A stretch of DNA of 63,212 bases from a virus: the IMG/VR virus record IMGVR_UViG_3300045988_149942. One strand, written 5' to 3'. A model generated the notes under the pieces. The model made no database searches. It was not told where the DNA came from and was given only the letters and a program-made list of their open reading frames with translations. Below, piece after piece: positions 21,461 to 62,716 of the stretch. The translations under genes and the position numbers were made by a program. Every line of letters begins with the position of its first letter. The first letter of the stretch is position 1.

Positions 21461-24235
21461 TTACCAACCCCCCATCGAATTGAAGGCTCGATAGTAGTCA
21501 TCCATCGAGTATTCGGGCTCGGCCGCTTTTTTGAGCGTCGCCATGAGCTCAAATATCATTCGGTAAGCAATCGGGTCAAGGTCATCGGGTGAATAATTAT
21601 GCCTGCGTTTAAACGCTAATTTCGATATAAAGAAGTATTTGCCGTTCTCTTTCTGATCGCGCTTGAGGCACTCGGTGGCTTCGAGCACGAGCAGATCAAG
21701 TATGGGCATTTTGTCGTTCTTGCGGCCGTATTGAACCAACGTGGAGCCCGGTATATCGAAGCGTAGTCGCCCCATTCGAAGGTAGGCGCTAAGTTTGCCG
21801 AGTAGCTGATCGCGGAGGCATACATACTGCTCCATCTCGATCACGTTTCCGGCCGAGTCGTATTCTTTTATAGGTGTGCGGTTCGAGACGATTGCCACGA
21901 CACCGCGCATATAGTCCTCGAAGTAGTTACCAAGACCTCCGGCATCCACCGCAATGTGTTCGACCGGAATGTCGTACTCAGTCTTCAAGGCGCGGACCCA
22001 TTCCACTTTCTCTCGCGCGTCATCCGTATAGGTAGTTTCAACGCGATTGCAGGTGAGTCCCGTCCAAATATAAGCCTTGGTCGGGTCGGTGCCGTCGCCG
22101 ATGTCCACGGTCATGTATCGCTCCGTAGACGGCTCGAAGGGGTTCTGATTCGGGCCGGGGAACATGGCCTCGATGTGGCTTTGGTTTACCATTGCCTCTC
22201 CTTCGCCCATCTCGCCCCAGTAGCCGAATAGGAGCTTCATTCGTTCCGCCTCTCCGACGTTGAACAAGTTGGCTACATTTCCGCCCTGCGTCTGGAAGGT
22301 GAGGATTCGGTTATCCATGATGTTACCGGGGATAAACGTGAAGGTCTTGATGAAGCTGTCGGTGGTCAGACCTGCGGCCCGCATCTCAGCGGTCAACATG
22401 GACTCAAGGTCAATTCGGCTCTTGACTTCATCCGGCGTCTCGCCCCAGATGATGTCCTCCGGCTTGTCGCCGTTGACTACCATATACATGATCTTGCCGA
22501 CGCGCTCTGGGCGGACATAATTGTCGTCGCCGATATACCCGGCCGTCCGGAGCATTTTGGAACTCCAGTGCCAGCCGTTCGCGTTGAGGGTGCAGACCAT
22601 CTTCGGTTTCATACCGGAAGCGTCACGGTTTCGAGAGAACCAGTATTTCCAGATTTTGAAGGTGAAGTTGGTCAACTCGTCGATGGCGATGTAGGAGGCC
22701 TGCTTATTTTTCATCTTCTCCTGCGCCTCCTTCTCCTGAGAGTCGGATTGCAGGTTGATGTGAGTGAGCATGATGGAGCCCTGGTACTCAGGCCATGCAA
22801 AGGAGTAGTCGGAGGCCGAGTATTCGCATCCTTTCATTTCGGAATATATTCGTTTCGCATCCGAAAGAATACCACCCGCAGTACCTACTTCGACGAGCTC
22901 CTTTTTTATGATAAGGCCCGAATATCCGTATTTACCAATGCCTCTAAGTGCCTCTAACAGAATGCAATATGTATTATGAGTAACTACACACGCCTTCGAA
23001 GCGAGGTATAGCGAGTTTGGGTTGCTAACTGCGATGCACCTACACTGCTCTCGGCCGACTTTTTCCACCTTCACGATCCTGCGCGTCTTGGAAAACCTGC
23101 GTGCCTTCACCTTCGATGCTTTACGATCCAGCCGGAACAACTTTGCGTTGTCGGCAGTCTGTATATATAATACATAGGCGTTCTTGCACTCGATGCGCAC
23201 ACCGTCCTTCTTATACGAGGTCGCTTTTTGGGTAATCGTACACATACCGCCAAGAGACCATATCACCTCCTGAATATCTTCGGCCAGTTGCTTGGAGGTG
23301 GTGGTCAAGCCAACGTTTGTCCTTCTACTGTCAGCATATCCATCCGAGTCCATGAGGCCCTGAATCAAGGCAAAGCGATCCTCTACCGATGCCATCTTGT
23401 ACCGAGTGGGGATGAATTTCGTATGGGAATAGGAGCCATATAACCCGAGCTCTTTAATTCTCGCTAAAAGGTCATCATCATATATGGTGTAATGCCTTCC
23501 ATCCTTGGAATCATACAAGCGCTTGCTGTTGTTTTTTAAAAACTCAACAATTTCCGTATCCGTCGTCGTAGCGGTTATTTGTTTTTGGCTCGTAGTCATA
23601 CATCCATCGCCCAGTAAAAAACCGAGCATGTATGGATCAACAGGCAACTCCTCTATCTGATAGAACGCTACGGGTTCACATAGAGGCACGGCAATATGTT
23701 TGTTTGGCTTCTCGTCGAGGTGTTTTATAATGGCCGCGGTGTCCCATACTGAGCAATCCTCGTCTCGGCTCAGGCCATGCAACTTCGCCCTCTTGGATTG
23801 TTTTCTCATTTCGTAAACATTCCATAGGTGCTCGTAGGTGCAGTCAACGAAGGCGCCGTCGATAAAGTGTACCCTATATACATCCTGCTCGCCGAGCTCG
23901 TAAATGTTGACTACTCGCTGTTGGCCGCCGAAGGTGCTGGAGATGATGTCTCCGGGCTTGAGGTCGCCCATTTTGCGGAATCCAAACGGTGTTGCGATCT
24001 GAAAGCTATACGCATGGCCTTTGCCCGCTGATGCGGAGCCTCCCGTCCAAATGACATCCGCCTCGCAGATCTGGATCGCTTCCTGAAACCCGGCCTGGCC
24101 GATGATGTCTTTGTTGTCTCGCAGTTTGGCTCCGTTCACTTTTACCCATCCCTTTTTCTTAACCGTACTGAGTTCGCGCTCTACTTTTGGATAGAGCTGT
24201 ACGGGCTGTGTATTGGGATTTATACGAGTAAACAT
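21461..24235 (-). CDS. terL: terminase large subunit, interrupted by an intein
   Basis: 924 aa; Walker A GSASAGK split from TYCILLEAL by about 349 aa of Hint + LAGLIDADG sequence; C-terminal nuclease-type region. Confidence 0.9.
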   Translation of the reverse strand: MFTRINPNTQPVQLYPKVERELSTVKKKGWVKVNGAKLRDNKDIIGQAGFQEAIQICEADVIWTGGSASAGKGHAYSFQIATPFGFRKMGDLKPGDIISSTFGGQQRVVNIYELGEQDVYRVHFIDGAFVDCTYEHLWNVYEMRKQSKRAKLHGLSRDEDCSVWDTAAIIKHLDEKPNKHIAVPLCEPVAFYQIEELPVDPYMLGFLLGDGCMTTSQKQITATTTDTEIVEFLKNNSKRLYDSKDGRHYTIYDDDLLARIKELGLYGSYSHTKFIPTRYKMASVEDRFALIQGLMDSDGYADSRRTNVGLTTTSKQLAEDIQEVIWSLGGMCTITQKATSYKKDGVRIECKNAYVLYIQTADNAKLFRLDRKASKVKARRFSKTRRIVKVEKVGREQCRCIAVSNPNSLYLASKACVVTHNTYCILLEALRGIGKYGYSGLIIKKELVEVGTAGGILSDAKRIYSEMKGCEYSASDYSFAWPEYQGSIMLTHINLQSDSQEKEAQEKMKNKQASYIAIDELTNFTFKIWKYWFSRNRDASGMKPKMVCTLNANGWHWSSKMLRTAGYIGDDNYVRPERVGKIMYMVVNGDKPEDIIWGETPDEVKSRIDLESMLTAEMRAAGLTTDSFIKTFTFIPGNIMDNRILTFQTQGGNVANLFNVGEAERMKLLFGYWGEMGEGEAMVNQSHIEAMFPGPNQNPFEPSTERYMTVDIGDGTDPTKAYIWTGLTCNRVETTYTDDAREKVEWVRALKTEYDIPVEHIAVDAGGLGNYFEDYMRGVVAIVSNRTPIKEYDSAGNVIEMEQYVCLRDQLLGKLSAYLRMGRLRFDIPGSTLVQYGRKNDKMPILDLLVLEATECLKRDQKENGKYFFISKLAFKRRHNYSPDDLDPIAYRMIFELMATLKKAAEPEYSMDDYYRAFNSMGGW
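22973..24019 (-). mobile_element. intein with LAGLIDADG homing endonuclease in the terL P-loop (N-boundary G73 or S77)
   Basis: LGFLLGDGC and LIQGLMDSDGY motifs; block B TYEHLW; block F RCIAV; C-terminus VVTHN followed by T. Confidence 0.8.
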
Positions 24236-36586: not shown

Positions 36587-37495
36587 ATGTTCATGCGAAT
36601 CATTTTAACGATCTGGCAGTTGCCGCAAGAGATCATCGGGGCGCTCTGGTGCCTCCTGTTTACGAACCACCGCGCGATCCTTCGACAGAACGGAGCTGTG
36701 TTCTTCGCATCGCCCAAAGTCAAAGGCGCATTCACAATGGGTTCGTTCGTTTTCCTGAACCCGAAATACATCACCAACGAGCCTACCTACGACCACGAGT
36801 TCGGCCATGTGTTGCAATCTCGGGCGTGGGGCTGGTTATGGTTGCTCGTATTCGCCATTCCAAGCGGGTTACACTGCTTGTTCCATAATCATGGGTCCTA
36901 CTACCACTTTTATACCGAACGCGACGCAAATCGCCGCGGAGGGGTCCCTAACTATACTGGCGGCGGCCGACATGACGAGCCGGGCTTGATTGCTACGACG
37001 CTGGCCGATCTGATAGCATGGAAGGCGAAGTATTTCGGGGTCCTGCTACTCTTCCTACTCGCGTCGTGTTGCCGCATGCCTTCGGCGTCTCTTCCCGAGC
37101 CCAGCGAAGACCGGGCCGACAGTACTCACACCGAGTATAAGGAGACGATCCGGTATGTTCGGGTCGAAGTCCCAGTTCCCGGCGAAGTACGAGAGATCAT
37201 CACGCCCGACACTGCGTCGCATCTTCGAACATCCGTAGCCGATAGCTGGGCCGGAATCCGGAACGGCATGCTCTGGCATAAACTCCAGAATCGGCAGGAT
37301 TCGCTTCCCAAGGCTGACATCCCGGTAATAGACACCAGCGAGAAAGAGGCTCGGATCGTTACAATAACGAAGCGAGAACCCTATGCCGTACTGACTCCGC
37401 TTACTCGGTGGCAAAAATTCAGGATGAATGTCGGAGGATGGGCATTACTGCTGATTTTACTGTTCCTCGCAAAAAAAATCATCAAAGTTTGGTAG
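36587..37495 (+). CDS. membrane protein with HExxH motif, internal lipobox-like segment and C-terminal TMD
   Basis: HEFGH at aa 70-74; VLLLFLLASCC at aa 152-162; C-terminal GGWALLLILLFLA. Confidence 0.6.
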   Translation: MFMRIILTIWQLPQEIIGALWCLLFTNHRAILRQNGAVFFASPKVKGAFTMGSFVFLNPKYITNEPTYDHEFGHVLQSRAWGWLWLLVFAIPSGLHCLFHNHGSYYHFYTERDANRRGGVPNYTGGGRHDEPGLIATTLADLIAWKAKYFGVLLLFLLASCCRMPSASLPEPSEDRADSTHTEYKETIRYVRVEVPVPGEVREIITPDTASHLRTSVADSWAGIRNGMLWHKLQNRQDSLPKADIPVIDTSEKEARIVTITKREPYAVLTPLTRWQKFRMNVGGWALLLILLFLAKKIIKVW

Positions 37496-37513
37496 GGGGG
37501 GGGTGTTTTTTTG

Positions 37514-37521
37514 TATATTTG
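37514..37521 (+). promoter_or_regulatory. -7 promoter box TATATTTG(CA)
   Basis: TAnnTTTG in the AT-rich gap after a G9/T7 tract. Confidence 0.45.
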
Positions 37522-37623: not shown

Positions 37624-37833
37624 ATGGCACAGATACATAGATCATTCTACTTCCAGCGAATGTGGAGTTGGCCCGTCAAGAAGGTCGAGCCCACTCCTCC
37701 TGAGCCGGAGGAGATAACTCTAAGTCCGAGTGCCCTGCATTTTACCGCAGAAGGTCAAATCAAAAATAGTCTGAACAATGGCAAAAGTAACAGTAACCGC
37801 CAACGACTCGTGGACCGTCTTGATCCCCGCTGA
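37624..37833 (+). CDS. BACON-array ORF A (leader + first beta-strand of a BACON domain)
   Basis: EEITLSPSALHFTAEGQ matches the BACON N-terminal strand; the ORF then runs out of frame over the start of ORF B. Confidence 0.45.
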   Translation: MAQIHRSFYFQRMWSWPVKKVEPTPPEPEEITLSPSALHFTAEGQIKNSLNNGKSNSNRQRLVDRLDPR

Positions 37834-38062
37834 GGCAACGTGGGTTCACTCCGACAAGATGTCGGGTGATGGCAACGGCGAAATCAACATCACCGTCGAT
37901 GTCAACCCCCGCGCTGACGCTCGTACCGCAACGGTAGCGGTCACTACGAAAGGTGGCGTTTCCAAGACCATCGTTATTTCGCAGGATTCGGCTGAATCGT
38001 CGCTGTCGCTCACCCCGAGCACGCTGGCATTCAACGCCGACGGAACTGCCAAAGCCGCGTAG
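37778..38062 (+). CDS. BACON-domain protein B
   Basis: VTVTANDSWTV..ATWVHS..SGDGNGEINITVDVNPRADARTATVAVTT...IVISQ, then LSLTPSTLAFNADGT. Confidence 0.7.
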   Translation: MAKVTVTANDSWTVLIPAEATWVHSDKMSGDGNGEINITVDVNPRADARTATVAVTTKGGVSKTIVISQDSAESSLSLTPSTLAFNADGTAKAA

Positions 38063-38064
38063 GT

Positions 38065-38352
38065 ATGGCAACGATCCAGCTCACAAGTCGTGTAGCGTGG
38101 AGCGTAAATTCCAAGCCGGATTGGGTTACCGTCACCCCCAGCAGTGGGGGTGGCGGTACCAAGTCCGTTGGAATTTCCGTGTCTGAAAACCTCACCAAGC
38201 AAGAGAGGACGGGAGAGGTACGCTTCTACAACGAGGACGGCTTCTACGAATCGCTCACGGTGACGCAGGATCGTTACAACGGCGTTGTTCTTGTTTACAA
38301 CGGAAAACTCCCCGTTTATGACGGGGCAAAAATAGTATTCAATGGAGATTAA
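38065..38352 (+). CDS. BACON-domain protein C
   Basis: IQLTSRVAWSVNSKPDWVTVTPSSGGGGTKSVGISVSENLTKQERTGEVRF...LTVTQ. Confidence 0.7.
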   Translation: MATIQLTSRVAWSVNSKPDWVTVTPSSGGGGTKSVGISVSENLTKQERTGEVRFYNEDGFYESLTVTQDRYNGVVLVYNGKLPVYDGAKIVFNGD

Positions 38353-39021: not shown

Positions 39022-41199
39022 ATGGCCGCAAGAGAAGAAAACATTCTGAACGTTCCCCTCTCCGAGACTCTCGAAGGGATGCACGTCCTTTGCGACACCG
39101 GAGATACGGGTGAGCCGTATCGTGTCGCCGCCAGCCTCTTTATTGCCGAGGCAACGCAGGCCGCGAAAGACGCGGTTTCCAACCTTGATCCCAAGGATGT
39201 AACCCTCAAGGGGTTCGCCGCACTTACGGCCGGAAAACCCGCGATCACCGCCAACTCTACGTTGTTGGCGGCCATTCAGTCGTTGTACGCGATGGTGGGC
39301 TCCGGCAAGGTCAAGGTCGTCAGCGATGGTGCCGACCAGACCGGAATGGTCTGCTGGAACGGGACATCGGCCAGCGGATTCGTCATCAACGTGAACGAAG
39401 CGGCCATCTACACCCGTTCGAAGTGGACGCAGTCCAACCCGGATTCCGTGACGGATGCTAACTGGATCGCCGCGGTTAAAACTGGCGGAACAAAGACTCC
39501 CTTCGCCGCCGCCGCGCAGAACCCAAACATGGGCGATCTTCCCACAAACAGCCGTCTCAAGTTCGTCGATAACAAGACCACAATCCTCGGTATGCTCAAG
39601 ATGCTGACTGCCGCCGCAAACGTGGGCCGCCTGCGTATCGTGTCCGGCAATCCCGCCACGGGAGCATCCGGGAAACCGGAGTTGGCCTTCATCGTTAATA
39701 TCGTTCAGGGAGCGAATGCCGAAACGCAGGGTACGAACGGTCTTCAGATTTTCCACCTGACCAACGACTACATCCGCGTCATTCCTTCGTCCAGTGTCGC
39801 TATGGCGTGGCCTACGCTCCAGACGTTGACCGACGAAGACGTCATCAAGAAGTTGAACTCCACTGCCTCTGGCGACTGGGGAGGGTTGGGCGTGAAGATG
39901 AACTGGAATCAATCCTCCATAGCCACGGTTGAAATCACCGATTTCGCAGTACCCGGTATAAATGTAACAAAGGACGGAGAAAGTTTCTTTATTTACGCCT
40001 CCAATCCGTCTCACCATCCTTATAATAACGATGATTCAACATCGTTTGTAGGGATAGCCGTCGCCAGCCCTATCTTTATATCGGGCGACCAACGGCTACT
40101 GTACTACATGGTTCTGGACACCCAAAAGGCGAGATTTTACACCGGATATGCAAACATGGAAGACGATTCGGTCACATGGTCTGACGGCACACAGACTCGC
40201 TTGGGCGGCGCAATACAAATTACCGCTTTCACCAAAGGCGCATTAAGTAGTCTGGTGTACGACTACAAACCCGGTGATTTCATACCGTTCTATACGAGGA
40301 ATGTAACTGCTTCGGCATCAAACCAGTTCCCTGAATCAGGCGTCTTCAATGGCTTTATATCCATGGGAAGCAACGAGGGCGATTATTTCCAGATATTCGC
40401 CTTTAAGACTGGTGCTGGCGGAAAAGCTTATTCAGGATCGTGTATTAGAAGCACTACCACTTGGACAAAACTTGGTGGCGGAGGCGGAGAACAAACAGTA
40501 ATATGGATCAATGCCAATCAAAACGTCTTCGATGTGGGCCTATATCCTTTCACTAAACTGGGTGAAATGTTCCCTATCTTCATTGACACATCAGCCACCA
40601 ATAATCCTTCTAAGGAAGGCTACCCTTGCGCGGGCACTGTTCAATGTGTAGGTTACCAAGGCCCAGAATCTTGGGAGGCGGTATTCGTAGTAGGTAGTGC
40701 CAACGAAGACCAAACTCCTCGCGGAGACTACTACAAGGCTCACCTGAGTTACGACATGGGGGGTTCTGCGTGGATCGAGCTAACGACGGGTAGCTCAAAT
40801 GAAATCTTCCCCGGCTGGAAACTGATTGTAAGTTCGTGGAGTAGCGCCGTAGGACCATCCGGAACGACTGGGATTATTCATTTCAATCAGGAGATACCCA
40901 CCACCTCGAAAATACTTATCGAAGCAACTATCCAGTCCTCTCCCGCTACAACGGCTATAATTAAGTTCCCGGTGCCTCTTACTATCGCGGGCATTAATGG
41001 AACCGGACAAGGAGTATTGTTTGAGATTTGCTCGAAGTATCTGGGCATTAACAGCACTCCGGGCAGTATCAAACTTATCTGTTCGTCGGTTATCACCGGA
41101 GCCAACGGGGTGCGAGGCATGAACGTTATTGTACAATCGAACAACTTATCAGACGCTTCGGATATTATCCAAATAAAAGGGATATATTTCAAAGCATAA
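39022..41199 (+). CDS. tail fibre / receptor-binding protein with exchangeable C-terminal tip
   Basis: ORF 38710..41199 trimmed to ATG 39022; 725 aa, Gly/Ser/Thr/Ala-rich; carries in-frame site S4. Confidence 0.7.
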   Translation: MAAREENILNVPLSETLEGMHVLCDTGDTGEPYRVAASLFIAEATQAAKDAVSNLDPKDVTLKGFAALTAGKPAITANSTLLAAIQSLYAMVGSGKVKVVSDGADQTGMVCWNGTSASGFVINVNEAAIYTRSKWTQSNPDSVTDANWIAAVKTGGTKTPFAAAAQNPNMGDLPTNSRLKFVDNKTTILGMLKMLTAAANVGRLRIVSGNPATGASGKPELAFIVNIVQGANAETQGTNGLQIFHLTNDYIRVIPSSSVAMAWPTLQTLTDEDVIKKLNSTASGDWGGLGVKMNWNQSSIATVEITDFAVPGINVTKDGESFFIYASNPSHHPYNNDDSTSFVGIAVASPIFISGDQRLLYYMVLDTQKARFYTGYANMEDDSVTWSDGTQTRLGGAIQITAFTKGALSSLVYDYKPGDFIPFYTRNVTASASNQFPESGVFNGFISMGSNEGDYFQIFAFKTGAGGKAYSGSCIRSTTTWTKLGGGGGEQTVIWINANQNVFDVGLYPFTKLGEMFPIFIDTSATNNPSKEGYPCAGTVQCVGYQGPESWEAVFVVGSANEDQTPRGDYYKAHLSYDMGGSAWIELTTGSSNEIFPGWKLIVSSWSSAVGPSGTTGIIHFNQEIPTTSKILIEATIQSSPATTAIIKFPVPLTIAGINGTGQGVLFEICSKYLGINSTPGSIKLICSSVITGANGVRGMNVIVQSNNLSDASDIIQIKGIYFKA
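40783..40801 (+). repeat. recombination-site candidate S4 (core ACGGGTAGCTC 40786-40796, read T-G-S-S)
   Basis: 11/11 core identity with S1, S2 and S3. Confidence 0.6.
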
Positions 41200-41206
41200 T
41201 AATAGT

Positions 41207-41230
41207 AAAGCCCCTCTAATGAGGGGCTTT
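41207..41230. terminator. Bidirectional hairpin terminator AAAGCCCCTC-taat-GAGGGGCTTT
   Basis: Perfect 10-bp stem with A/T flanks between convergent ORFs; same stem as at 47349. Confidence 0.75.
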
Positions 41231-41233
41231 CAT

Positions 41234-41671
41234 TTACAGCGCCTTGGATAGCCTATATATGCCTACGACATGGAATGCTTCTATGATAGTATCCATCTCT
41301 CCGGTAGCCTCCATCGAAAGTATCGTATCCGACGCCGACAGCATTAAGTTGAAGCCGGATATGATGGATACACCTCCGGTGGCCGACGAGTAATCGAATG
41401 CCTCCACTGTAACATCGTATGTGCCAGATGTGGCGGTCCAAATGATACTGCGACCTCCTTGGGGGCCTACCATAGTGTGATCGTCGGATATAAAATCGTA
41501 TACAATCATCAGCAAGTCGCCGTCGTGCACTTCACCACCCAAGTTGAATGTTTCCGGCGCGGCGTTAGCCAAGGCTATGTCGCCTACGAATAGTTGTTCT
41601 GTTCCACTTGAGCTACCCGTGATTTGATATATGATGCTTAGTGATGACCTCGCGATTCGCGACTCCATCAT
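41234..41671 (-). CDS. tail-fibre tip cassette 1 (silent/alternative copy with 16-codon leader)
   Basis: MMESRIARSSLSIIYQ-ITGSS-...VGIYRLSKAL; site S1 is in frame. Confidence 0.55.
   Translation of the reverse strand: MMESRIARSSLSIIYQITGSSSGTEQLFVGDIALANAAPETFNLGGEVHDGDLLMIVYDFISDDHTMVGPQGGRSIIWTATSGTYDVTVEAFDYSSATGGVSIISGFNLMLSASDTILSMEATGEMDTIIEAFHVVGIYRLSKAL
41605..41624 (-). repeat. recombination-site candidate S1 (inverted relative to S4)
   Basis: Sense strand CAAATCACGGGTAGCTCAAGTG. Confidence 0.6.
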
Positions 41672-41760
41672 AACGCAACGTAACTGCCTAACCCTCTCCC
41701 GAAACGGAGATTCATTTCGGCTATAATATCGTTATCGGAATACCGATAACGAATGATAGT

Positions 41761-41786
41761 AAAAAGGGACCCGTTGGAGTCCCTTT
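41761..41786 (-). terminator. Terminator after the tail-tip gene
   Basis: AAGGGAC...GTCCCTT stem + T5 on the minus strand. Confidence 0.6.
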
Positions 41787-41788
41787 CG

Positions 41789-44700
41789 CTATCGCATCAT
41801 GTGGTTGTAGAGCCAGTATTGTCCATCCCATAGAAACAGTGCGGCGTCTCCCAAACCTTCTCCAACGCTTGTTTCTAATGAAGCAGAACCTCTTAATATC
41901 CGTGCCCCATTTCCATTCACCTTAACATTGGCCGAATTATTGCGGCGCACGATAACAAAATTGCCCTCGGCTCCTCCCGGCACGACCGCTGGTAATGTTA
42001 TCGTTATTTCCGATGTATTATAACACGACACATACATCACGCTATGATCTATGGTCGTAGAGGCGCTAATCCTTAGTGTTTTGTAGGCCAAACCTGAAAC
42101 GTACCCATTCTCGATGCGTATTGCTTCGTTTTGTTGACCTCCTCTTACATCTATAAGAAGCCCGATGTTATATCCAAACATATTGTCATCCCTCCAACTC
42201 TCAAATCGAGCCATGCAGGTTGCACCCGTCGTTGCGGAGAACACGTTGGTTCCCATGAAAACGTTTACATCTACGATAGGGTTGGATGATTTTTCCGAGA
42301 ACTTGATAAACGAATCATACAACGACATCCCGTTGGTGGGATTAGGGTCATTTGGATCGGATATACTTCCTATACGCCCACTCCCTATTTGGAATCCGCC
42401 TATCGAGCCGCTTTCGGCTACTATTTCTCCTTTAATTTCAGCCTCACTGGATATTAACTTGCCTCCCTCCAGAATCTTCGTCGGCGCATCGTACCGCTCC
42501 GAGAACGGCTTTCCAGCCCAGAACCGAATCTGACCCTCGCTGGCCGCCACACCAGAGGGCACGGCGGCATCATCCGCCGTCATGCCGACCAGTACGCTCT
42601 CAACCTTGGTCTCCGATCCCACACCGATGTACCCCTGAGCGATGAAGCTACCCTGAAAGTATGCCTCCTCTGCCGCGGCCCGGATTACGTCTCCAACGAA
42701 GGAGAGCTCGTTCTTGCCGTCGGCGAGAGACTCGTACTTGAGGTACTTGGTGCGCTCTCGGTTGCCGACGTAGAGGTTGCCGAAGACCTCGGCCCACGTC
42801 TTGCCTTCGATCCGGCCGAGGTTGATGCTGTCCTTGGCTGTAAGGTTGTAGCCAGTGATGTCATCGAGCCATGTCATCAGAGCACCGCCTTCTCGGGAAA
42901 CATCTATGACTATGGCCGACTGCCGCGATGTATCGGTCGGGTTTCCAAGTTGAACTACGTTATCTCCGGCATGCGGCTCGTCGCTATTGGTGGCCGCATC
43001 GGTCTTGGAAAGGTCGATATAGTTGATACCTATGCCGACAACCTTGCGCCAGTAGAAGATGTTCTCCAGCGTCGATTCGTCGATGTCGCCGATCATCTGG
43101 GAATAGGCTTGATCGCCGACCACAAACTCATTCGTCTGCTTTCCGTCGGTCTGCTCCAGATAGCATCGCCATGCCTCTCCGATGTCCTCAACTTCCGAAA
43201 TAGTTCCGGAGGCACTGGTCAACACCTGCTTGCCGCCTATCGCTGTTATCTGATTGATAACGATTTCGTTCACGTTCATCTTGCGACGAACGAAGAGGTG
43301 ATCTACCTCTAATACAGAGCTACCGTCCGGGTTCTTGTACATCCCCCACCCAGAGCCCCCGAAGCCTCCTTGCCGGAAGTTGTCGCTCATGGTCGTGTCG
43401 GCGAATGTAACCTCGGCCGTAAAGTGCGTCGGAGAGTACGAGCGGGCCGCAATTCCATCCTTGCGCAGAAACAGCGTTTCGAACGTTTTGGCGGCCTCAG
43501 CAACGATTTGGGAGGATGACATGATGTTGGAGCTAAGGCGCCGAATTTCGCCTTGTATGGCCGACGTAGAGGTCTTACTCGCTACCATCTCCTCCGACAC
43601 CGTGATAGTCCATTCGGGGAGGAGTTTGCCCTCCTTATAGGCAATGGTCAGGTTATTGATATACAGCACCAGATCGGTCTCGCCGATAAGTTGGTTGTTG
43701 TGTAATCGTATCTTCGTTCCCGGCCGGAGCTTCTCGCGCTCTTCAAAACTTTCGCAGAATATCGCGCTCGGCTTGGCGGAGAAGGTTGGATTCTCGTCAT
43801 CGACGCGATCCAGTTCCACTTCGAGGTAGTCCTGCAACTTATCCTCGGCCCACAACACATACTGATGGGGCATTTCGATGTTGATAAGGAAGAAGTGGTC
43901 TCCCGGCTTAGCGTTCTGCTTTGTGTTGGGGAGCATGAGGCCGGAGGCGCGAAGCTCGGCATCCGACTTGATAAGCGATAGCCGATACTTGGATTTCACT
44001 GTGATCGTGTTCCCTTCCTCGTCCACCGTTTCGATATGCTTGGAGTCATCCTCCCATATACACCAGTAGTCGCCAGTTTCAGGGTCTTTGGCCTCTGGGT
44101 TGCCGAGCGTCGGGTCTTTGGCGATAACAAATTCGTAGTCCTCTCCGGCCAGCAACCCGTCGGAGAACATGACCGTAGCCTCGCGCTGACCGATCTTCGG
44201 CCACCACACGTCTACGATAGAGCCAGTCTCGCCCCAAATATCCTTAATCCAGATGTCGAATACTTGACGGTATGGGCCAATTCCCTCAGCCGGAGCTACA
44301 CTGAACCTCCCGGTGGTAACCGCCATGTAGTAGTGCTGGTTGCTTCCGGGGTTGGTTGTGCACTTGAAAGATACAGATGTCCGGACTCGATACTTACCCA
44401 TCGGCAACTGAATCTCAAACTTACTCTTGCCTTCGTTCTGAACTTCACCTCTTGCATCAGTGTATTCCATATCAGTTAGCGCATTCAACGCTTTCGAGAA
44501 TACCACCTGATTGAACTCAGAGAGGACATACACATTCAGCTCAGCGTACTCCAAGTGATTGCTGTCGAACCATTTAGTATATCTTTCTACACCTCTTGGC
44601 ACGGTGCTCGTCTCCTTTCCGTATATGCTGAATGTAAGGGTAGGAAGCGTTGCCTTAACTTCCATCTCTTCACTGGTTACGGACTGGGTGAATAGCTTGT

Positions 44701-45967
44701 CATACACTACTGGGCCCCGCCGCGTGTCCATTCCCGGAAAATCAACTTTTATTTCCGTAGATTTATAGGCAAATTTGCCTTTTTCTTCGGCTTCCGCGTA
44801 GTTATCATTCGTCACCTCCTCGACCGCAATCACCTCGTCGGCCCGGCCAAGTGTGCCAAGCCATACATTCTGGATCGAAGGGTAAATCTCCTCGTTGTCT
44901 TCGAGCACCCCGACCCGAACGCCCCACTTCTCCTGCATCGGAGAGTCGGCATAGTCGGACGGGTACATCTGTCGCCCGGCCTTCATATCGGAGTAGCCGA
45001 GCATGTAGTACGGGTTGTTGCCTTCGGCCGGGTCCTTTCCGGCCGTAGCGTCATTCCAGCCTCGAACATAGTCGCGGTACGACTTCGGCATGAGGTTGGA
45101 GTAGTAGGATAGCTCGGTAATCGAGTTTGCATCGGGGTCTCCGACGAAGGCCCCGGCCGCACCCTTGAAGTAGCGGTAGGGGAGGTTCCGGGTCGAACCG
45201 CGGCCAATCAGCCGGGTGTAGATGTCCGTCTGGTCATTCACGCGCTGGATCGAAACCAGTCCGGTTCCGTCTGCGTTCGCCTCGTCCATCGGCACGTCGC
45301 CGTAATCGAAGATGTGCTCGATCTCGGGCGACGGGAAACCGACTTTAATGCTGATCTGGCCGTTGTCTTCTTCGATACTCCAGCGAACACCGTATAGCTC
45401 GTATAGCTGGGTCAGCACATCCCAGATCGTCGTCTTGTCAACACTCACGGTAGCCCGGAACGGATTTATCTCCATATCCGGGTTCAGAACCACCTTCCAA
45501 CGCGCTCCGTAGTAGTAAGCGAGGTTATCCCCCAACCGACCGACAAACTCCGTCAAATCGGCTAAAAATGCGAATTTCATGCCGATGGTCTGGAGCGTAC
45601 CGTCGGTGAGCTTGATTATATTCGAGAACGGGTAGAATTTGAGGTCCTCCCGCTCCGAAACGAAGGTGAGCGTGTATTTGTAGCGGAGCGACTTGAGGTC
45701 CTTGATCCCCGGCGGCGCATAGCTCTTGAGATGGTATGTCTCGCCGTTGTACACCACGGTCCAGTTCAAGTTGAATCCCGGCTCCTCTTCGGGACCGAAG
45801 TAGACATCCATCGTGATGACCGACTCCCCCATGTCAACCTCGTTGACCGTGAAGTTCGTGATCTCGATTTCGTTCGCCAAAAGATTAAAGGTGATGGCCT
45901 TGTTGTTGTAGAGCATCACCTTATTGTCGTAGACGAGTAGAGCGGGAACCAGCGACTTGATTATCAT
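41789..45967 (-). CDS. tail tip / baseplate hub protein (Tal-like, 1392 aa)
   Basis: Very long ORF directly downstream of a Dit-sized gene; typical siphovirus distal tail arrangement. Confidence 0.75.
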   Translation of the reverse strand: MIIKSLVPALLVYDNKVMLYNNKAITFNLLANEIEITNFTVNEVDMGESVITMDVYFGPEEEPGFNLNWTVVYNGETYHLKSYAPPGIKDLKSLRYKYTLTFVSEREDLKFYPFSNIIKLTDGTLQTIGMKFAFLADLTEFVGRLGDNLAYYYGARWKVVLNPDMEINPFRATVSVDKTTIWDVLTQLYELYGVRWSIEEDNGQISIKVGFPSPEIEHIFDYGDVPMDEANADGTGLVSIQRVNDQTDIYTRLIGRGSTRNLPYRYFKGAAGAFVGDPDANSITELSYYSNLMPKSYRDYVRGWNDATAGKDPAEGNNPYYMLGYSDMKAGRQMYPSDYADSPMQEKWGVRVGVLEDNEEIYPSIQNVWLGTLGRADEVIAVEEVTNDNYAEAEEKGKFAYKSTEIKVDFPGMDTRRGPVVYDKLFTQSVTSEEMEVKATLPTLTFSIYGKETSTVPRGVERYTKWFDSNHLEYAELNVYVLSEFNQVVFSKALNALTDMEYTDARGEVQNEGKSKFEIQLPMGKYRVRTSVSFKCTTNPGSNQHYYMAVTTGRFSVAPAEGIGPYRQVFDIWIKDIWGETGSIVDVWWPKIGQREATVMFSDGLLAGEDYEFVIAKDPTLGNPEAKDPETGDYWCIWEDDSKHIETVDEEGNTITVKSKYRLSLIKSDAELRASGLMLPNTKQNAKPGDHFFLINIEMPHQYVLWAEDKLQDYLEVELDRVDDENPTFSAKPSAIFCESFEEREKLRPGTKIRLHNNQLIGETDLVLYINNLTIAYKEGKLLPEWTITVSEEMVASKTSTSAIQGEIRRLSSNIMSSSQIVAEAAKTFETLFLRKDGIAARSYSPTHFTAEVTFADTTMSDNFRQGGFGGSGWGMYKNPDGSSVLEVDHLFVRRKMNVNEIVINQITAIGGKQVLTSASGTISEVEDIGEAWRCYLEQTDGKQTNEFVVGDQAYSQMIGDIDESTLENIFYWRKVVGIGINYIDLSKTDAATNSDEPHAGDNVVQLGNPTDTSRQSAIVIDVSREGGALMTWLDDITGYNLTAKDSINLGRIEGKTWAEVFGNLYVGNRERTKYLKYESLADGKNELSFVGDVIRAAAEEAYFQGSFIAQGYIGVGSETKVESVLVGMTADDAAVPSGVAASEGQIRFWAGKPFSERYDAPTKILEGGKLISSEAEIKGEIVAESGSIGGFQIGSGRIGSISDPNDPNPTNGMSLYDSFIKFSEKSSNPIVDVNVFMGTNVFSATTGATCMARFESWRDDNMFGYNIGLLIDVRGGQQNEAIRIENGYVSGLAYKTLRISASTTIDHSVMYVSCYNTSEITITLPAVVPGGAEGNFVIVRRNNSANVKVNGNGARILRGSASLETSVGEGLGDAALFLWDGQYWLYNHMMR

Positions 45968-46380
45968 GTTATATGGTAGTTAAAATCACACTTGTTAGGT
46001 TCGGCTACATAGAGCGTCAATTCGAAGATGAACGCGCCCTGCATGACCTGCACGATAGTCTCAGAGCCCGGCATCTTGGTCGGGTAGCCTACGATCTTCA
46101 CGCCTTTGTAAAGGTTATATATTGTGACCGGGAGAGCTTTCTTTACGTCGCCGTTCGTAGTGGGCTCGAAGAAGGAGTCCCATAGGGATCGGATCGCCGC
46201 GTTCATCGTTTCGAGCTCACCGAAGTAGAGTAGCTTCACGGTGTACTCGAAAGCCTTGTCTACGGTGTAGGGATATATCTTAACACCGTCGCGCTCCGGA
46301 TAGTCCTCCTCTTCGTAGGAACGCTTCTCCGGCGCGAGAATATCAGGGGATTCCATCAGGTGAAATCCCATCGTCTGCAT
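45964..46380 (-). CDS. distal tail protein (Dit-like, putative)
   Basis: ORF 45964..46494 trimmed to ATG 46380 (18 nt after the upstream stop); ATGA overlap with the Tal start. Confidence 0.5.
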   Translation of the reverse strand: MQTMGFHLMESPDILAPEKRSYEEEDYPERDGVKIYPYTVDKAFEYTVKLLYFGELETMNAAIRSLWDSFFEPTTNGDVKKALPVTIYNLYKGVKIVGYPTKMPGSETIVQVMQGAFIFELTLYVAEPNKCDFNYHIT

Positions 46381-46400
46381 ATCTCGAACCTCTCCGTCGG

Positions 46401-46925
46401 CTACTTGGTAGCGGAGGCGGCAATCCCTTGTGGCTTCCATTTCTTGCGCTTGATTCGTATGTTGCCTTTGAATACCGGGACGCAGTGTCCCCACTGGTAG
46501 ACGGTTACGGGCTTTACGGACTTGTTGTTGATCCTCACCGGGGAGTTGTCGAAGATGTCGAGGATCAGTATTGCGTTCGGTGCTACCTCGAATTTAAGGT
46601 TGCTCCCGTATGCAACATAGGCATGCACCACGGCCCACTCCTTAACCCGAACCGTCCCCTCGCAAAGCCAAAAAACATCGACTCCTTGAACGGCTTCGGT
46701 ATCTACCGTCTGCTGGACGAAGATACCAGCCACATTCAAGTCTTTCTTATCCCAGCACGTGCGAATCAACTCAACCGAAGGAAACCCGGAAAAAGTGCAC
46801 TCCTGAATCATAGTTTTGAAGTGATCGAAGAGCGCAGGGGTATCTTCCGTGAGCATCTGCTTGAAATGATCCTCACATATCCCGGCCGCATGAGCCTCCC
46901 GCGTCAGTGCTTTGATGATGTCCAT
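46401..46925 (-). CDS. hypothetical protein
   Basis: ORF 46401..46964 (TTG start) trimmed to ATG 46925. Confidence 0.55.
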   Translation of the reverse strand: MDIIKALTREAHAAGICEDHFKQMLTEDTPALFDHFKTMIQECTFSGFPSVELIRTCWDKKDLNVAGIFVQQTVDTEAVQGVDVFWLCEGTVRVKEWAVVHAYVAYGSNLKFEVAPNAILILDIFDNSPVRINNKSVKPVTVYQWGHCVPVFKGNIRIKRKKWKPQGIAASATK

Positions 46926-46963
46926 AACCGCTCCAAATATACGCAAAAAAAAAGCGTAAACCA

Positions 46964-46983
46964 AATCACGGGTAGCTCGGGTG
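46964..46983 (+). repeat. recombination-site candidate S3
   Basis: AATCACGGGTAGCTCGGGTG, 20/20 identical to inverted S2. Confidence 0.65.
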
Positions 46984-47342
46984 TAAAAAAGCTACCGGGG
47001 TTAGACGTGGTGCTCAACGAAAGCACTGCTGTCATCCCCTACGCATCTACCGAATTAGTGCCGTTATCGGCAGGTACCACATTATTGCTTTGTTTCGAAT
47101 TGGCCGATTCCGATGCTCGGTTTAGTCCGTGCGGAAATGTGGTTGTATATTATGATTTGCCTCCGGCGAACAATTTATGGGGAACGATTGCAGGATTCTT
47201 CGATAACGCAACCGGTTCTAATGGGTTCATCAACGCCCGGCGCCGTGGAGCAGGAATCTTTGATTTTCAATGTTTGAGCGCATTAGTAGACGGGTATCCA
47301 TCCCTCGAAGTGTACCTCAAGCATATCCTTATACTTGGATAG
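46965..47342 (+). other. startless tail-fibre tip cassette 3 (126 codons from ITGSS to stop)
   Basis: In-frame ITGSSGVKKLPG...EVYLKHILILG; the upstream part of ORF 46428..47342 is antisense to a real gene. Confidence 0.5.
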
Positions 47343-47348
47343 CAAAGC

Positions 47349-47374
47349 AAAGCCCCTCGTTTTGAGGGGCTTTT
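47349..47374. terminator. Bidirectional hairpin terminator AAAGCCCCTC-gtttt-GAGGGGCTTTT
   Basis: Same stem sequence as 41207-41230. Confidence 0.75.
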
Positions 47375-47377
47375 CAA

Positions 47378-47764
47378 TTACTTTCCTGAAATATTGTATA
47401 TTCCCGTTATAAGGTATTGAGGGCCATGAGTACTACCGCCCCAGGATGCAGCCGAAAATAAAAGAGCCTCCGACCCAGCTTCGGTTGTACTTTGATCAAG
47501 GAAAAGTCCATAATATTCACTCGGAGTGACGAAATTTTCTACTAATTCCAAGAACACATCATGCCCATATGCGTTTGGATTAATAATAGCTTGACCTGGA
47601 ACGTCTATACCTAAATAGGAGGTATTTTGTTTACGCCATGTGATCAACACTCTATCTGTTGCTTTGAGTGCTCTTGTAAGATTAATTTGTACTGGGTCCC
47701 CATTGCCCGCATCGGAGTCAACCATGACATAAGTTGCTTCCGTAGGAGTCCACAGTGCCTCCAT
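47378..47764 (-). CDS. tail-fibre tip cassette 2 (frame stays open upstream through ITGSS to 47788)
   Basis: L-ITGSS-GGG-MEALWTP...LITGIYNISGK. Confidence 0.55.
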   Translation of the reverse strand: MEALWTPTEATYVMVDSDAGNGDPVQINLTRALKATDRVLITWRKQNTSYLGIDVPGQAIINPNAYGHDVFLELVENFVTPSEYYGLFLDQSTTEAGSEALLFSAASWGGSTHGPQYLITGIYNISGK

Positions 47765-47769
47765 TCCTC

Positions 47770-47789
47770 CACCCGAGCTACCCGTGATT
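47770..47789 (-). repeat. recombination-site candidate S2
   Basis: Given strand CACCCGAGCTACCCGTGATT; overlaps the stop codon of 47788..48423. Confidence 0.65.
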
Positions 47790-48423
47790 AACTTATCTGT
47801 TCCAAAAAGACATCTTTGAGGCGCTCAAATCTGGTGGTACGACTTGGTCCGATACCGTTCAAAGTGGCGACCCTACGAGACGAGATCATGTCTACGTCTA
47901 CATCCTTGTAGTCGTTATACCAAACCCGATCCATCCTGATTAATACGCATAACTCCCTTGCTTCCGGCTCGGCTCTTCGATCCAGCCAATCGCACATTGC
48001 GGCCAACGATATAGGACTCCCATTCAGGTAGGACCTCTCATACGCTTCGACCAAGAATTTCGCCCTTTCGTATGACGGGATAGACGGAGGTCCGAACACT
48101 CCAATTTCGGCGTACAAATCTTTGTAGAAGAGGAATCTGTGGTACTCAAACATCGTGACAATATTAACCCCGGCCTTTCCCGTAGCGGCCAGCCAGATGG
48201 GATCAATCAATATCAGCGGAATGTTTTCGAGACGCTTAACCAGTTCCGGATCGCACATACACTCAATCGTGAGTTTACACCCCGGCGACGACTGATTTTC
48301 GAACCACTTTGCGAAGTCGCCGAAGGTATGGTGGTCATGCTCCTTCCACTTCGCTTGGGCGTAGTCGATCTCTCTGTTGAGGTCGCGGTTTTTGAACGCC
48401 CGCAGATAGTCAGTGCTTTTCAT
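47788..48423 (-). CDS. hypothetical protein
   Basis: 211-aa ORF. Confidence 0.65.
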   Translation of the reverse strand: MKSTDYLRAFKNRDLNREIDYAQAKWKEHDHHTFGDFAKWFENQSSPGCKLTIECMCDPELVKRLENIPLILIDPIWLAATGKAGVNIVTMFEYHRFLFYKDLYAEIGVFGPPSIPSYERAKFLVEAYERSYLNGSPISLAAMCDWLDRRAEPEARELCVLIRMDRVWYNDYKDVDVDMISSRRVATLNGIGPSRTTRFERLKDVFLEQIS

Positions 48424-48890: not shown

Positions 48891-49163
48891 CTACTTCACG
48901 GCGTCCTTCACCGCAGGCGAGAACTTGAACGACACGCGGTTCTGGGCCGGGATCGTGACCGACTTCCCTCGGCTCATGTCGTAGCCCTGACGCGCGGGGC
49001 ATGCCTTCACGCTGAACGTTCCGAAGCCCTTGAGGGAGACTTTCTCCCCGTTCTTGAGGGTCTCGACGATCTTGTCCATGAACGTCTCACACACCTTGTT
49101 CACGACGGTCTTGGTGATGCCCGTCTCTTCGGCGATCTTCGCCATCAATTCGCTTTTCTGCAT
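48891..49163 (-). CDS. hup: HU/IHF-family DNA-binding protein
   Basis: GFGTFSVKACPARQGYDMSRGKSVTIPAQNRVSFKFSPAVKDAV matches the HU arm signature; trimmed to ATG 49163. Confidence 0.8.
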   Translation of the reverse strand: MQKSELMAKIAEETGITKTVVNKVCETFMDKIVETLKNGEKVSLKGFGTFSVKACPARQGYDMSRGKSVTIPAQNRVSFKFSPAVKDAVK

Positions 49164-49270
49164 TTTCGTTTTGATTTTTAAGTTGATAGAGTTTTTCTTC
49201 AAGGGCCTCTATTTTACCCATGCAGTAGTATATCAGGGCTCCCATTATGATAAGCAAAGAGAGCCAAAGT

Positions 49271-50815: not shown

Positions 50816-51124
50816 TCATAGCTCTCCTATCGTTTTAGCGATGTCTACAACATCACCGATATTATCTTTGGCCATTTTGAGCCCGTAATGAGCGATAACG
50901 CCCGACAAGAGGATGGCGGTTCCGATCCGGAAGTCGTACCCGTCGTTCGCCCACTCCTTGGTCTCGTTTAGTTCCTCTTCGGTCTTGATCTGGGCGACCG
51001 GGACCGGGTTCGGGTAGCCTTCCAACGCCACGAATACCGGACTGATGTTCGCCTCAACCACATACCAGTGCTTGTTCTTGGTCCAGAACACCGTCTGGCC
51101 GATCTTAAATTTACTCTGCGTCAT
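50816..51124 (-). CDS. hypothetical protein
   Basis: 102-aa ORF. Confidence 0.55.
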   Translation of the reverse strand: MTQSKFKIGQTVFWTKNKHWYVVEANISPVFVALEGYPNPVPVAQIKTEEELNETKEWANDGYDFRIGTAILLSGVIAHYGLKMAKDNIGDVVDIAKTIGEL

Positions 51125-51833
51125 TGTATTCTAATACTCGTTTGACTGCAATTTTATGCCACTTTCCGCCGCGCGGCCGTTCGATTTCCACCTCGTTGAA
51201 GTGGTCGGCGATCTCGGCCAGCGACCAGCCCTTGCGCTGTAATGCGAGGGCGTACTTCTTTGCTTCGACCATGCGCGGGTCCACAACCCGGTTCTCGGCG
51301 ATCCGCTCCATCCGGCGAGCCAGTTGATCCGGAGACATCGGCCCGCGCTGGGGCCGCGGATTCCCGAGTCGCGTCACCCGGCGCCCGGCCTTGGAGATAA
51401 AGAAGCCCTGCTCCTTGAGTTGCTTCTTCCGGACGCCGAGCGCCGACTTTGTTCGGCCCGAGATAAGTTCGCGCTCTGTCTGAGCCAAGCCGATAGCGAG
51501 GCAAAAGGTGATCGTTGTCGCCTCGGGGTAGTCTATCGCCAGCAGATCGACCCCCGTATTGCGCAAATACAGCGCGTACTCCGCATCACGGGAGAGTCGA
51601 TCCAGTTTGGCGACGATCAAAGTTGCACCTTCACGCGCGGCTAATTCCATCGCGCGACGAAGGCCCGGTCGGTTCCGATCCTTTCCACTGCGAATGTCAC
51701 GGAACTCGCCGATATTCTGCCCGTGTGTCCGGGCAATATATTCGCGGCACTGATCGAGTTGGGCTTCCAGACCGAGGCCTGAACGCCCCTGCTCTTCGGT
51801 GCTCACGCGGGTGTAGATGCAATACTTTTTCAT
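51111..51833 (-). CDS. small serine recombinase (resolvase/invertase family)
   Basis: N-terminal YTRVSTEEQ catalytic Ser motif, DRLSRD, C-terminal HTH-like region; 240 aa. Confidence 0.85.
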   Translation of the reverse strand: MKKYCIYTRVSTEEQGRSGLGLEAQLDQCREYIARTHGQNIGEFRDIRSGKDRNRPGLRRAMELAAREGATLIVAKLDRLSRDAEYALYLRNTGVDLLAIDYPEATTITFCLAIGLAQTERELISGRTKSALGVRKKQLKEQGFFISKAGRRVTRLGNPRPQRGPMSPDQLARRMERIAENRVVDPRMVEAKKYALALQRKGWSLAEIADHFNEVEIERPRGGKWHKIAVKRVLEYNDAE

Positions 51834-61864: not shown

Positions 61865-62091
61865 AAACGCGATTTTCAAATATGCAATAGCACTTAGTAA
61901 AAATAATCCAAATGGAACAGCATTTGCCGTTGCGAACCCGATTTTGTGGAGAATATGAACAATTTTTGGGGCGTTGAACTTTTGAACGGGGGCAAGTATC
62001 GGACGAGGGGAGAAACGCCGCCAGATCGACGGAAACGGGACGAAAACAGTATGCGTCGCGGTGGTGGCAAAGTGAGATTAAAGCGGGTAGG

Positions 62092-62380
62092 GGATAGAGA
62101 ACGCGAGGAGAAAAAAAAGGAAAGCGCAGGAGAAAAAAAAGGAAGGCGCGTAAAGCGCTGATTACAAGCGAAAAGAAAGAAAAAGAAAAAAGGAAACACT
62201 AAAAGAAACAAAAAGAAACATCGAAAGGAAAGAAAAAGAAAGTAAAGGAAACATGCTGTAAATATGTTATTTTAGGCTGTTTGCTGTTTTCTGTGGCAAA
62301 AAATAGCACAAAAAGTTACTAAAAATAATCAAAAGGAAAGAAAAGGAAAGGAAAGGAAAGTTAAAAGGAAACAAAAATGG
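62092..62380 (+). repeat. polypurine (A/G) low-complexity tract with AAAGGAAA(C/G)-type and 23-bp tandem units
   Basis: AGGAGAAAAAAAAGGAA(A/G)GCGC x2; AAAGGAAAC x3; GGAAAGGAAAGGAAAG. Confidence 0.8.
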
Positions 62381-62457
62381 TAAATTTAACATAATATTTT
62401 TTGTGCCCAAATAGAACAAAAAATAGGCCATTTAGAACACAATCGCCATAACGCTGT

Positions 62458-62493
62458 GATTATCAGGCATTTACGCGTAAGTGCCTGATAATC
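62458..62493. repeat. 36-bp near-perfect palindrome GATTATCAGGCATTTACGCGTAAGTGCCTGATAATC
   Basis: 17 of 18 positions pair; the centre TTACGCGTAA is itself palindromic. Confidence 0.9.
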
Positions 62494-62716
62494 AACGAGT
62501 TATGGGGGTCAAAAAGGTCGATTTTTTCGTTTTGCATTTGTTTTCAAGGGTTTGCAGAAAGGTCTCAAAATTCAACCTAACTAACGTTATGTAAATTGTA
62601 ACGGCTCTAAAAAGCGATTGCGGGCCGTGTAAACAAAAACAACCAAATCAGCCCCGTGCGCATTGTGGCCGCGACTTTATGGCTGTTTGTGTGCTGACTG
62701 ACAGCGCGAACCGATC

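Follow-up and report, generated by a model that had tools for sequence, protein, structure and literature searches.

A viral DNA record of 63,212 nucleotides (nt) (IMG/VR record IMGVR_UViG_3300045988_149942; this whole stretch is called the window below) very probably encodes a shufflon-like multiple-inversion system by which a phage diversifies the receptor-binding end of its tail fibre. The predicted system comprises four short recombination sites (S4, S1, S3 and S2), four alternative 3' ends of the fibre gene (cassettes A to D), a central block of tail-tip genes and a serine recombinase of 240 amino acids (aa); coordinates are collected in Table 1.

The site network stands out clearly from the background of the window. 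A search of all 63,212 nt with the 17-mer CAAATCACGGGTAGCTC, allowing up to three mismatches, returned four matches and no others (40780-40796 and 46962-46978 on the plus strand, 41610-41626 and 47775-47791 on the minus strand), against 0.13 expected, and none of 100 shuffled sequences gave four. In the alignment, all four sites share an invariant core of 11 nt, ACGGGTAGCTC; searched alone at up to two mismatches, this core gave 17 matches versus 14 by chance and could not be distinguished from background, so that the network consists of exactly four members. The coordinates and orientations that the initial annotation had assigned to the sites (S4 plus, S1 minus, S3 plus, S2 minus) were correct, as were the identities it reported, with 17 identical nt between S1 and S3 and 20 nt between S2 and S3 (100% complementarity in the repeat finder). 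The alternating orientation creates four inverted pairs (S4xS1, S3xS2, S1xS3 and S4xS2) and two direct pairs (S4/S3 and S1/S2). The two large inverted pairs described earlier, S4xS2 at about 7.0 kilobases (kb) and S1xS3 at about 5.3 kb, were reproduced by the repeat finder with arms 6,978 and 5,325 nt apart, the arms of the latter pair being 39 nt long; both enclose the three minus-strand open reading frames (ORFs) of the central block, as had been stated. The inverted arms of S4 and S1 are 797 nt apart.

The position of the sites relative to the reading frames links them to the fibre. S4 sits inside the fibre gene, at codons for T-G-S-S, and each of the four cores, read in its own orientation, gives ACG GGT AGC TC., that is T-G-S-S, after which a frame of 124-137 aa stays open up to a stop codon; every cassette has the right arm of its site as its in-frame 5' end. 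Cassette A continues the constant part of the fibre gene and is the expressed one, and B, C and D are silent. The four are mutually unrelated in sequence and form two tail-to-tail pairs, A/B and C/D, with one hairpin terminator per pair. Inverted sites that lie in frame in a fibre gene and bound alternative 3' coding cassettes, the hallmark of the Mu G, P1 C and p15B Min class, are thus present in the window. The 725-aa gene call is repeated in the same-strain contig L179, and the constant part of the fibre is conserved in relatives, with varying 3' cassettes. Moreover, in other phages (L009, L023, L025, L027 and L028) homologues of the cassettes are preceded on the same strand by matches to fibre homologues: a cassette C homologue is fused directly to fibre homologues in L009 (90%) and in L023 and L025 (72%), and a cassette D homologue with 95% identity comes after the fibre-homologue match in L027. 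This arrangement fits genuine fibre C-termini. Family scans of the fibre, cassette B, p211 and p143 gave no match, nor did a sequence search of the PDB with the fibre. A listed ORF of 304 aa at 46428-47342 on the plus strand is an artefact, formed where the antisense of p174 continues across S3 into cassette C; the coding part is limited to 46968-47342.

The strongest support comes from natural isomers. Relatives were gathered by look-ups in IMG/VR, metagenomes and assemblies, and were annotated with the proteins of the window and the site core; a pattern scan of metagenomes proved too permissive, with at least 120 loci of which about 100 were chance matches and about 20 informative. Among the matches listed were about 35 distinct contigs that share roughly 95% identity with the window; the block is co-directional with the tape measure and fibre genes in about 23 and opposite in about 13, and no contig was contradictory. 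The A/B pair is flipped between L011, in which the fibre carries A, and L014, L054 and L089, in which it carries B, and the distal cassette pair is flipped between L004 and L038. The latter two contigs come from different samples and are 99.8-100% identical over 9.8 kb, save for a clean inversion of 1,472 base pairs (bp) bounded by 25-bp sites; the flipped segment is itself 100% identical. In L033, L036, L141 and L149 the A/B pair is relocated to the far end, beside p211, and in L057 the fibre type of the window (96% nt identity) carries C in place of A. Four to seven different cassettes are found joined to every left flank, the flanks being identical over 50 nt; cassette A is joined to all four left flanks among the relatives, and the population holds at least eight cassette types. 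An alignment of the window with L003 switches strand exactly at S1 and S3. The related contigs thus cover all four types of inversion predicted, and alternative isomers occur both across these contigs and in one same-strain pair (L004/L038). The suggestion of the initial annotation that the assembly captures one of several isomers is supported by these comparisons, in which breakpoints fall at the sites and the recombinase is present; its prediction that S1xS3 and S4xS2 inversions would turn the tail-tip block around and swap fibre cassettes likewise agrees with the two block orientations and the relocated pairs of the relatives.

Three aberrant natural junctions, whose identity with the pseudo-site parents is limited to AC or CAC, locate the probable point of strand exchange. 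In L047, part of p211 is inverted: the parents ...GCTAATC-AC-GGGTAGCTC and ...CAATATCG-AC-CCCAGCC share AC only and gave the products ...GCTAATC-AC-CCCAGCC and ...CAATATCG-AC-GGGTAGCTC. In L036, codon 35 of p211 (...CATGACC-AC-CATACC in the window) is joined to -GGGTAGCTC-cassette B with a deletion within p211, the shared sequence being CAC; the event is a natural deletion in which a pseudo-site recombined with a direct site. In L002, L007, L095 and L175, the p174-side arm ...CCAAATC-AC- runs directly after AC into the middle of a D-like, truncated cassette, D'. These junctions point to AC as the crossover dinucleotide. Sharing of 2-3 bp fits the 2-bp staggered cut of serine recombinases and is too little homology for general recombination. 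Half-site symmetry around AC, a position suggested by the three natural junctions, is good in S4, a near-perfect dyad with seven of nine positions paired (GAGCTAACG / GAGCTACCC, by direct reading), and the p211-side sites of relatives, AAGCTAATC-AC-..., resemble it; the block-side left arms of S1 and S3 are poor dyads. The three bases after the core (AAA, AAG, GGG or AGG) show no strict tie to cassette or flank, and we treat them as allelic variation that carries no weight on the crossover position.

Some relatives carry variants at these positions. The p211 pseudo-sites lie at 2897-3010 in L036 and 2043-2730 in L047, with window equivalents at about 48318-48332 and 48165-48185. Two contigs, L007 and L095, have no p211, so that this gene seems dispensable. 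In a second fibre type (L004-L010, L090, L095, L006; for example L010 at about 11755-11775), a degenerate fibre-cassette junction that lacks AC, GGCGGCGGCTCGGGTG / TTAGGCGGCGGCTCGGGTG, replaces S4 and probably locks the fibre in those strains; other sites of this lineage still flip, as seen in L004 versus L038.

The candidate catalyst has a resolvase-type catalytic domain with the motif YTRVSTEEQ and a serine nucleophile. It is the only recombinase found by Pfam scans of ORFs picked across the window, and these scans revealed no tyrosine recombinase or integrase. Among relatives it is conserved at 100% aa identity, with neighbouring genes varying between 86% and 100%, and wherever a contig extends far enough, gene and sites are found together. 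The enzyme does not belong to the Hin/Gin-type invertases, which are marked by a length of about 190 aa, an HTH_7 domain and close mutual relatedness. The catalytic domain of the TP901-1 integrase is its top match in the PDB, Gin matches only at 8e-7 over aa 44-137, the best NCBIfam matches (XisF and CcrB) are far below cut-off, and similarity to the Mpi family is slight enough to neglect, at 18.8 bits versus a cut-off of 272. A gene for an HU/IHF-like DNA-binding protein lies between the recombinase gene and the sites and is conserved in all relatives; a role for its product as an accessory DNA-bending or synapsis factor is speculative.

We propose the following mechanism. The recombinase would bring any two sites of opposite orientation into synapsis, cleave both at the central AC and exchange the strands, giving rise to four inversions: S4xS1 and S3xS2 (each about 0.8 kb), S1xS3 (5.3 kb), which turns only the block, and S4xS2 (7.0 kb), which turns the whole region. 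Enumeration of these moves yields 16 isomers, in which every possible fusion of fibre and cassette occurs with both orientations of the block. Any of four unrelated C-termini could in this way be joined to the fibre, and the operon of the central block would flip as a passenger. We infer that the recombinase encoded at 51111-51833 is the catalyst, that the block promoter is active and that the cassettes set host range.

The passenger segment consists of three minus-strand genes between S1 and S3, encoding p174, p176 and a 1392-aa protein, that form one operon. An AlphaFold (AF2) model of aa 1-450 of the 1392-aa protein is confident for aa 35-210 only, and its Foldseek matches in the PDB (probability 1.00, E values of 1.6e-6 to 5e-4) include the monocin tip 9j1k_L (1.6e-6), the Listeria prophage protein gp18 (3gs9), VgrG1 and the tail tips of Bxb1 and Douge; PHROG tail-fibre families match its C-terminal part. 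The modelled structure indicates a Tal-type tail-tip protein with a gp27/VgrG-like hub fold and supports the tail-tip label that the gene had been given. Sequence searches with Tal gave no match in the PDB and no relative among 185,579 species genomes. The upstream gene, p176, had been called Dit-like. It has no Pfam, PHROG or NCBIfam match, a single homologue was retrieved and its single-sequence AF2 model is unusable (predicted local distance difference test score of 45.7); its status as a candidate Dit derives solely from its position directly upstream of Tal, and a 49%-identical homologue holds the same position in Parabacteroides phage PF672P1. In L179 it is called as 158 aa. The earlier statement that each gene or gene group has its own terminator holds for each transcription unit (the two cassette pairs and the block) and not for each individual gene.

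Upstream of p174, a sequence of the form TTTG-N20-TATATTTG, which fits the Bacteroides -33/-7 promoter consensus, marks the candidate promoter of the block. The pattern has nine matches in 63 kb, and nearly all of them coincide with the start of an operon; examples are the divergent 24.25-kb region and the motif at 37488-37521 ahead of the BACON/fibre operon. A sigma-70 promoter scan was set aside as not meaningful for Bacteroidales. The candidate is kept in all relatives, site-less ones included. Its -33 TTTG lies within the left arm of S3, and the proposed crossover falls just outside. Because the crossover lies outside both the promoter candidate and the terminator, the Tal operon is probably expressed in either orientation.

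The direct pairs S4/S3 and S1/S2 both bracket the block, so that any site-specific deletion removes Tal. This raises the possibility, which we put forward only tentatively, that the Tal operon between the cassette pairs serves as a deletion guard: deletions would be lethal, and an inversion-only outcome would result from selection of the products and not from a Fis/enhancer-type filter. Loss of Tal on deletion may be the reason that true sites show inversions only. Deletions and dead sites arise at pseudo-sites, as in L036 and at the truncated D' junction. If the guard operates, a recombinase unrelated to the Hin family could run a stable shufflon.

Several observations weigh against a recombinase-driven, ongoing fibre shufflon. 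The evidence for inversion is comparative, drawn between strains and samples: an exact-protein look-up of Tal found same-strain contigs (L179 and two similar places) that show the isomer of the window only, and the one near-identical inverted pair (L004/L038) involves the distal cassette pair and not the 5.3-kb block. Several lineages have degenerate or dead sites, and site activity may be lost in some strains. The recombinase has no HTH_7 (Hin-type) match even at E values up to 10, and its C-terminus has a weak PF07508 Recombinase match at 18-20 bits, below the cut-off of 21.1. No recombinational enhancer or directionality factor was identified from the sequence. The candidate block promoter is a pattern match only. 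Finally, no inverted-repeat network comparable to that of the window was found near the tail genes of PF672P1, which has a homologue of the recombinase, so that this recombinase family is not always tied to fibre inversion.

Part of this evidence could be read as fixed, lineage-specific rearrangements left by past recombination or modular exchange, with sites that are now inactive in this phage. Most comparisons are indeed between strains that are about 95% identical, the same-strain contigs are of a single isomer and sites have decayed in several lineages. We nevertheless consider this reading quite improbable, since all four sites of the window keep the exact 11-nt core and AC, the recombinase is 100% conserved, L004 and L038 are 100% identical across the flipped segment and nearly every contig presents a different combination, with identical 50-nt flanks joined to different cassettes, as expected of frequent and recurrent events. 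That general or phage recombination functions acting on short homologies (17-25 bp), or assembly chimeras at repeats, mimic isomers seems to us very improbable indeed. The repeats are perfect over 17-25 bp and metagenome assemblers can mis-join at repeats in mixed populations, but the identity between the aberrant junctions and their partners extends over no more than 2-3 bp, which is not enough to drive an exchange by homology; breakpoints are consistent across independent assemblies from many studies and assemblers; repeats of at most 25 bp are shorter than typical final k-mers; and chimeras would in any case need both orientations in the sample.

If inversion is real, its catalyst might still be a host Bacteroidales invertase or another phage function, with the 240-aa recombinase serving, for example, in multimer resolution. 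Bacteroidales are generally known to encode many invertases, the recombinase gene lies 3.3 kb from the nearest site and PF672P1 keeps a 39%-identical recombinase without an obvious site network. This division of labour appears unlikely to us, however, as the gene at 51111-51833 is the only recombinase gene that the Pfam scans of picked ORFs detected and accompanies the sites in every contig reaching that far, the 2-bp AC junctions match serine-recombinase chemistry and the similarity to the Mpi family is negligible. We favour a shufflon driven by the phage's own serine recombinase. Other candidate systems were rejected outright: a diversity-generating retroelement, because Pfam scans detected no reverse transcriptase; an Rci-type shufflon, because the scans of picked ORFs detected no tyrosine recombinase; a BV01-type shufflon, because its motif TGGGAGAACT has no exact match in the window (two matches with one mismatch occur elsewhere, versus 4.1 expected by chance); and integration or a prophage origin, because the same Pfam scans detected no integrase and the species genomes hold no Tal relative, and because contigs of 225 kb and 412 kb that carry the phage join the end of the window to its start and not to host DNA.

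Table 1. Features of the inversion region and its surroundings, in window coordinates unless a related contig is named (dG and z, values for predicted hairpins)
Feature	Position	Strand	Basis and remarks
Tail-fibre gene, 725 aa	39022-41199	+	ORF and translation; constant part 39022-40785 plus cassette A
Site S4 (L1, within fibre gene)	40777-40796	+	GAGCTAACG-AC-GGGTAGCTC; near-perfect dyad; putative crossover AC at 40786-40787
Cassette A, 137 aa from TGSS, fused to fibre (expressed)	40786-41199	+	In frame with fibre
Bidirectional hairpin terminator between A and B	41207-41230		dG -18.3, z -5.4
Cassette B, 128 aa from TGSS, silent	41234-41620	-	In-frame reading from core
Site S1 (L2, block 3' end)	41610-41629	-	TATCAAATC-AC-GGGTAGCTC
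Terminator hairpin and T-run directly after the 1392-aa gene	41748-41792	-	dG -16.6, z -4.1
Tail-tip/hub protein (Tal-like), 1392 aa	41789-45967	-	gp27/VgrG-like N-terminus in model
p176, candidate Dit	45964-46494	-	ORF; start probably at 46440, giving 158 aa
p174, first block gene	46401-46925	-	phrog_10156 (PHROG of unknown function)
Bacteroides-type promoter candidate of block	46934-46965	-	TTTG-N20-TATATTTG, nine bases before p174 ATG; pattern match
Site S3 (L3, block 5' end)	46959-46978	+	AAACCAAATC-AC-GGGTAGCTC
Cassette C, 124 aa from TGSS, silent	46968-47342	+	In-frame reading from core
Bidirectional hairpin terminator between C and D	47349-47373		dG -17.8
Cassette D, 135 aa from TGSS, silent	47378-47785	-	In-frame reading from core
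Site S2 (L4)	47775-47794	-	AAGTTAATC-AC-GGGTAGCTC; left arm overlaps p211 stop codon
p211, last gene of leftward operon	47788-48423	-	ORF; fixed outer flank, out of frame with cassettes
HU/IHF-like DNA-binding protein	48891-49202	-	PF00216, 2.8e-26; NCBIfam HU-beta/IHF matches below cut-off
Serine recombinase, 240 aa, proposed invertase	51111-51833	-	PF00239 Resolvase, 5.9e-23, aa 6-138
Extra gene in p176/Tal interval of relatives	L169 18653-19768; L171 19292-20419; L175 17012-18163; L177 17711-18844

The surroundings of the invertible region also deserve mention. Many relatives carry, between p176 and Tal, an extra gene of 371-387 aa with a weak Laminin_G_3 match that the window lacks (Table 1), and gaps of about 1.1 kb are seen at this interval in L002, L004 and others. 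A transposase of the IS1595 family (DDE_Tnp_IS1595, 304 aa) occupies different places in L174 (2456-3370) and L176 (18636-19550), in the latter directly after Tal. The fibre operon opens with two small BACON-domain proteins (94 and 95 aa; 37778-38352, plus strand), together with p224 (phrog_38864); BACON domains are typical of Bacteroidales-associated glycan binding. A 924-aa ORF directly upstream of the portal gene (21461-24235, minus strand) matches LAGLIDADG_3 (7e-14) and Hom_end (4.9e-7) around aa 282-365, which suggests an intein or a homing-endonuclease insertion; it is the presumed large subunit of the terminase, and no terminase family match was obtained for it. A single tRNA-Met (CAT) gene lies at 11931-12003 on the minus strand, in the replication/early region. 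The GC content falls to 0.38 in the last 1.2 kb (62001-63212) versus about 0.52 elsewhere. In L173 (1-1600) the end of the window (about 63107) is contiguous with its start (about 345), and the window is hence a complete genome, circularly permuted or circularly assembled; the phage is also found inside the two large contigs of 225 kb and 412 kb mentioned above.

The exact sequence of the recombinase is indexed in 7,303 blocks of a public assembly collection, which suggests that the phage is widespread, and the identifiable samples are from the human gut. Inversion is a means by which Bacteroidales vary capsules and surface proteins. A fibre shufflon with 16 isomers would be a direct counter-strategy to such inversion of the host surface, and would explain part of the strain-level mosaicism seen at this locus in gut virome assemblies. 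Assemblies of this phage would accordingly be expected to break or to be chimeric across 40.8-47.8 kb, and host-range predictions made from a single assembly would be incomplete. The system would add a serine recombinase from outside the Hin/Gin family, in a host without Fis, to the enzymes of fibre-switching inversion, and would indicate that a whole operon, including a tail-hub gene, can be an invertible segment. In addition, a recombinase this small, with sites of about 20 bp, could become a tool for Bacteroides genetics.

The closest cultured relatives identified by protein search are the Parabacteroides phages PF672P1/P2, with 38% identity in Tal; a megablast search against cultured phages gave no match. 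In PF672P1, the homologues of p174, p176 and Tal are co-directional with the tape measure, and the recombinase is 39% identical to that of the window. Our literature searches turned up no description of the present four-site system. In its predicted logic it corresponds to Mu G/Gin and P1 C/Cin, and most of all to the multi-site Min system, and its outline also resembles the R64 shufflon. The Min multiple-inversion system of plasmid p15B was reportedly described by Sandmeier, Iida and Arber in 1992 (cited in PMC11850598), and inversion of the Mu G type in tail fibres is said to go back to van de Putte in 1980 (cited in PMC12823448); Mu G/Gin, P1 C/Cin and e14 P/Pin are single-segment relatives of Min. 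As in these systems, a serine recombinase would invert DNA between short in-frame sites of a tail-fibre gene and swap 3' cassettes on a constant 5' part, and, as in p15B Min, several sites give many isomers. In contrast to Min and Gin, the recombinase lacks HTH_7 and is nearest to the catalytic domains of large serine recombinases (TP901-1, XisF, CcrB), with Gin a distant relative; the site sequence is different, the host belongs to the Bacteroidales, the phage has no integrase and a 5.2-kb operon with a tail-hub gene forms one invertible segment. We know of no Fis-type enhancer in this system, and, to our knowledge, Bacteroidales lack Fis.

The R64/IncI1 shufflon (Rci, pilV) shares with the present system sites in both orientations, multiple cassettes, a constant 5' part with variable C-termini and many isomers, but Rci is a tyrosine recombinase that acts on asymmetric sfx sites to vary a pilus adhesin, whereas a serine recombinase and a phage fibre are involved here. 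The term shufflon-like, used in the initial annotation, is therefore apt for the logic of the system and does not extend to membership in the Rci family. A tail-fibre shufflon has been described in BV01-like phages of Phocaeicola vulgatus, in a preprint of September 2026 (PMC13596623); it belongs to a temperate phage, spans 1.7 kb with three cassettes separated by the 10-bp directional motif TGGGAGAACT, produces six isoforms and is supported by read-level evidence of several configurations (PMC13596623). Both are multi-cassette invertible regions over the distal end of a tail fibre in phages of Bacteroidaceae, with a recombinase adjacent, but the region described here measures 7.0 kb and has four unrelated sites, two cassette pairs and an included Tal operon. 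The invertons of Bacteroides, for which the Mpi and Tsr invertase families are listed (PMC9881135), also diversify surface interactions by programmed inversion in the same host clade; unlike the present system, they are host encoded and mostly act as promoter switches, and the Mpi match of our recombinase is negligible. Compared with these known systems, what differs here is the subfamily of the recombinase, the sequence of its sites, their occurrence in a phage without an integrase and the Tal operon as an invertible segment.

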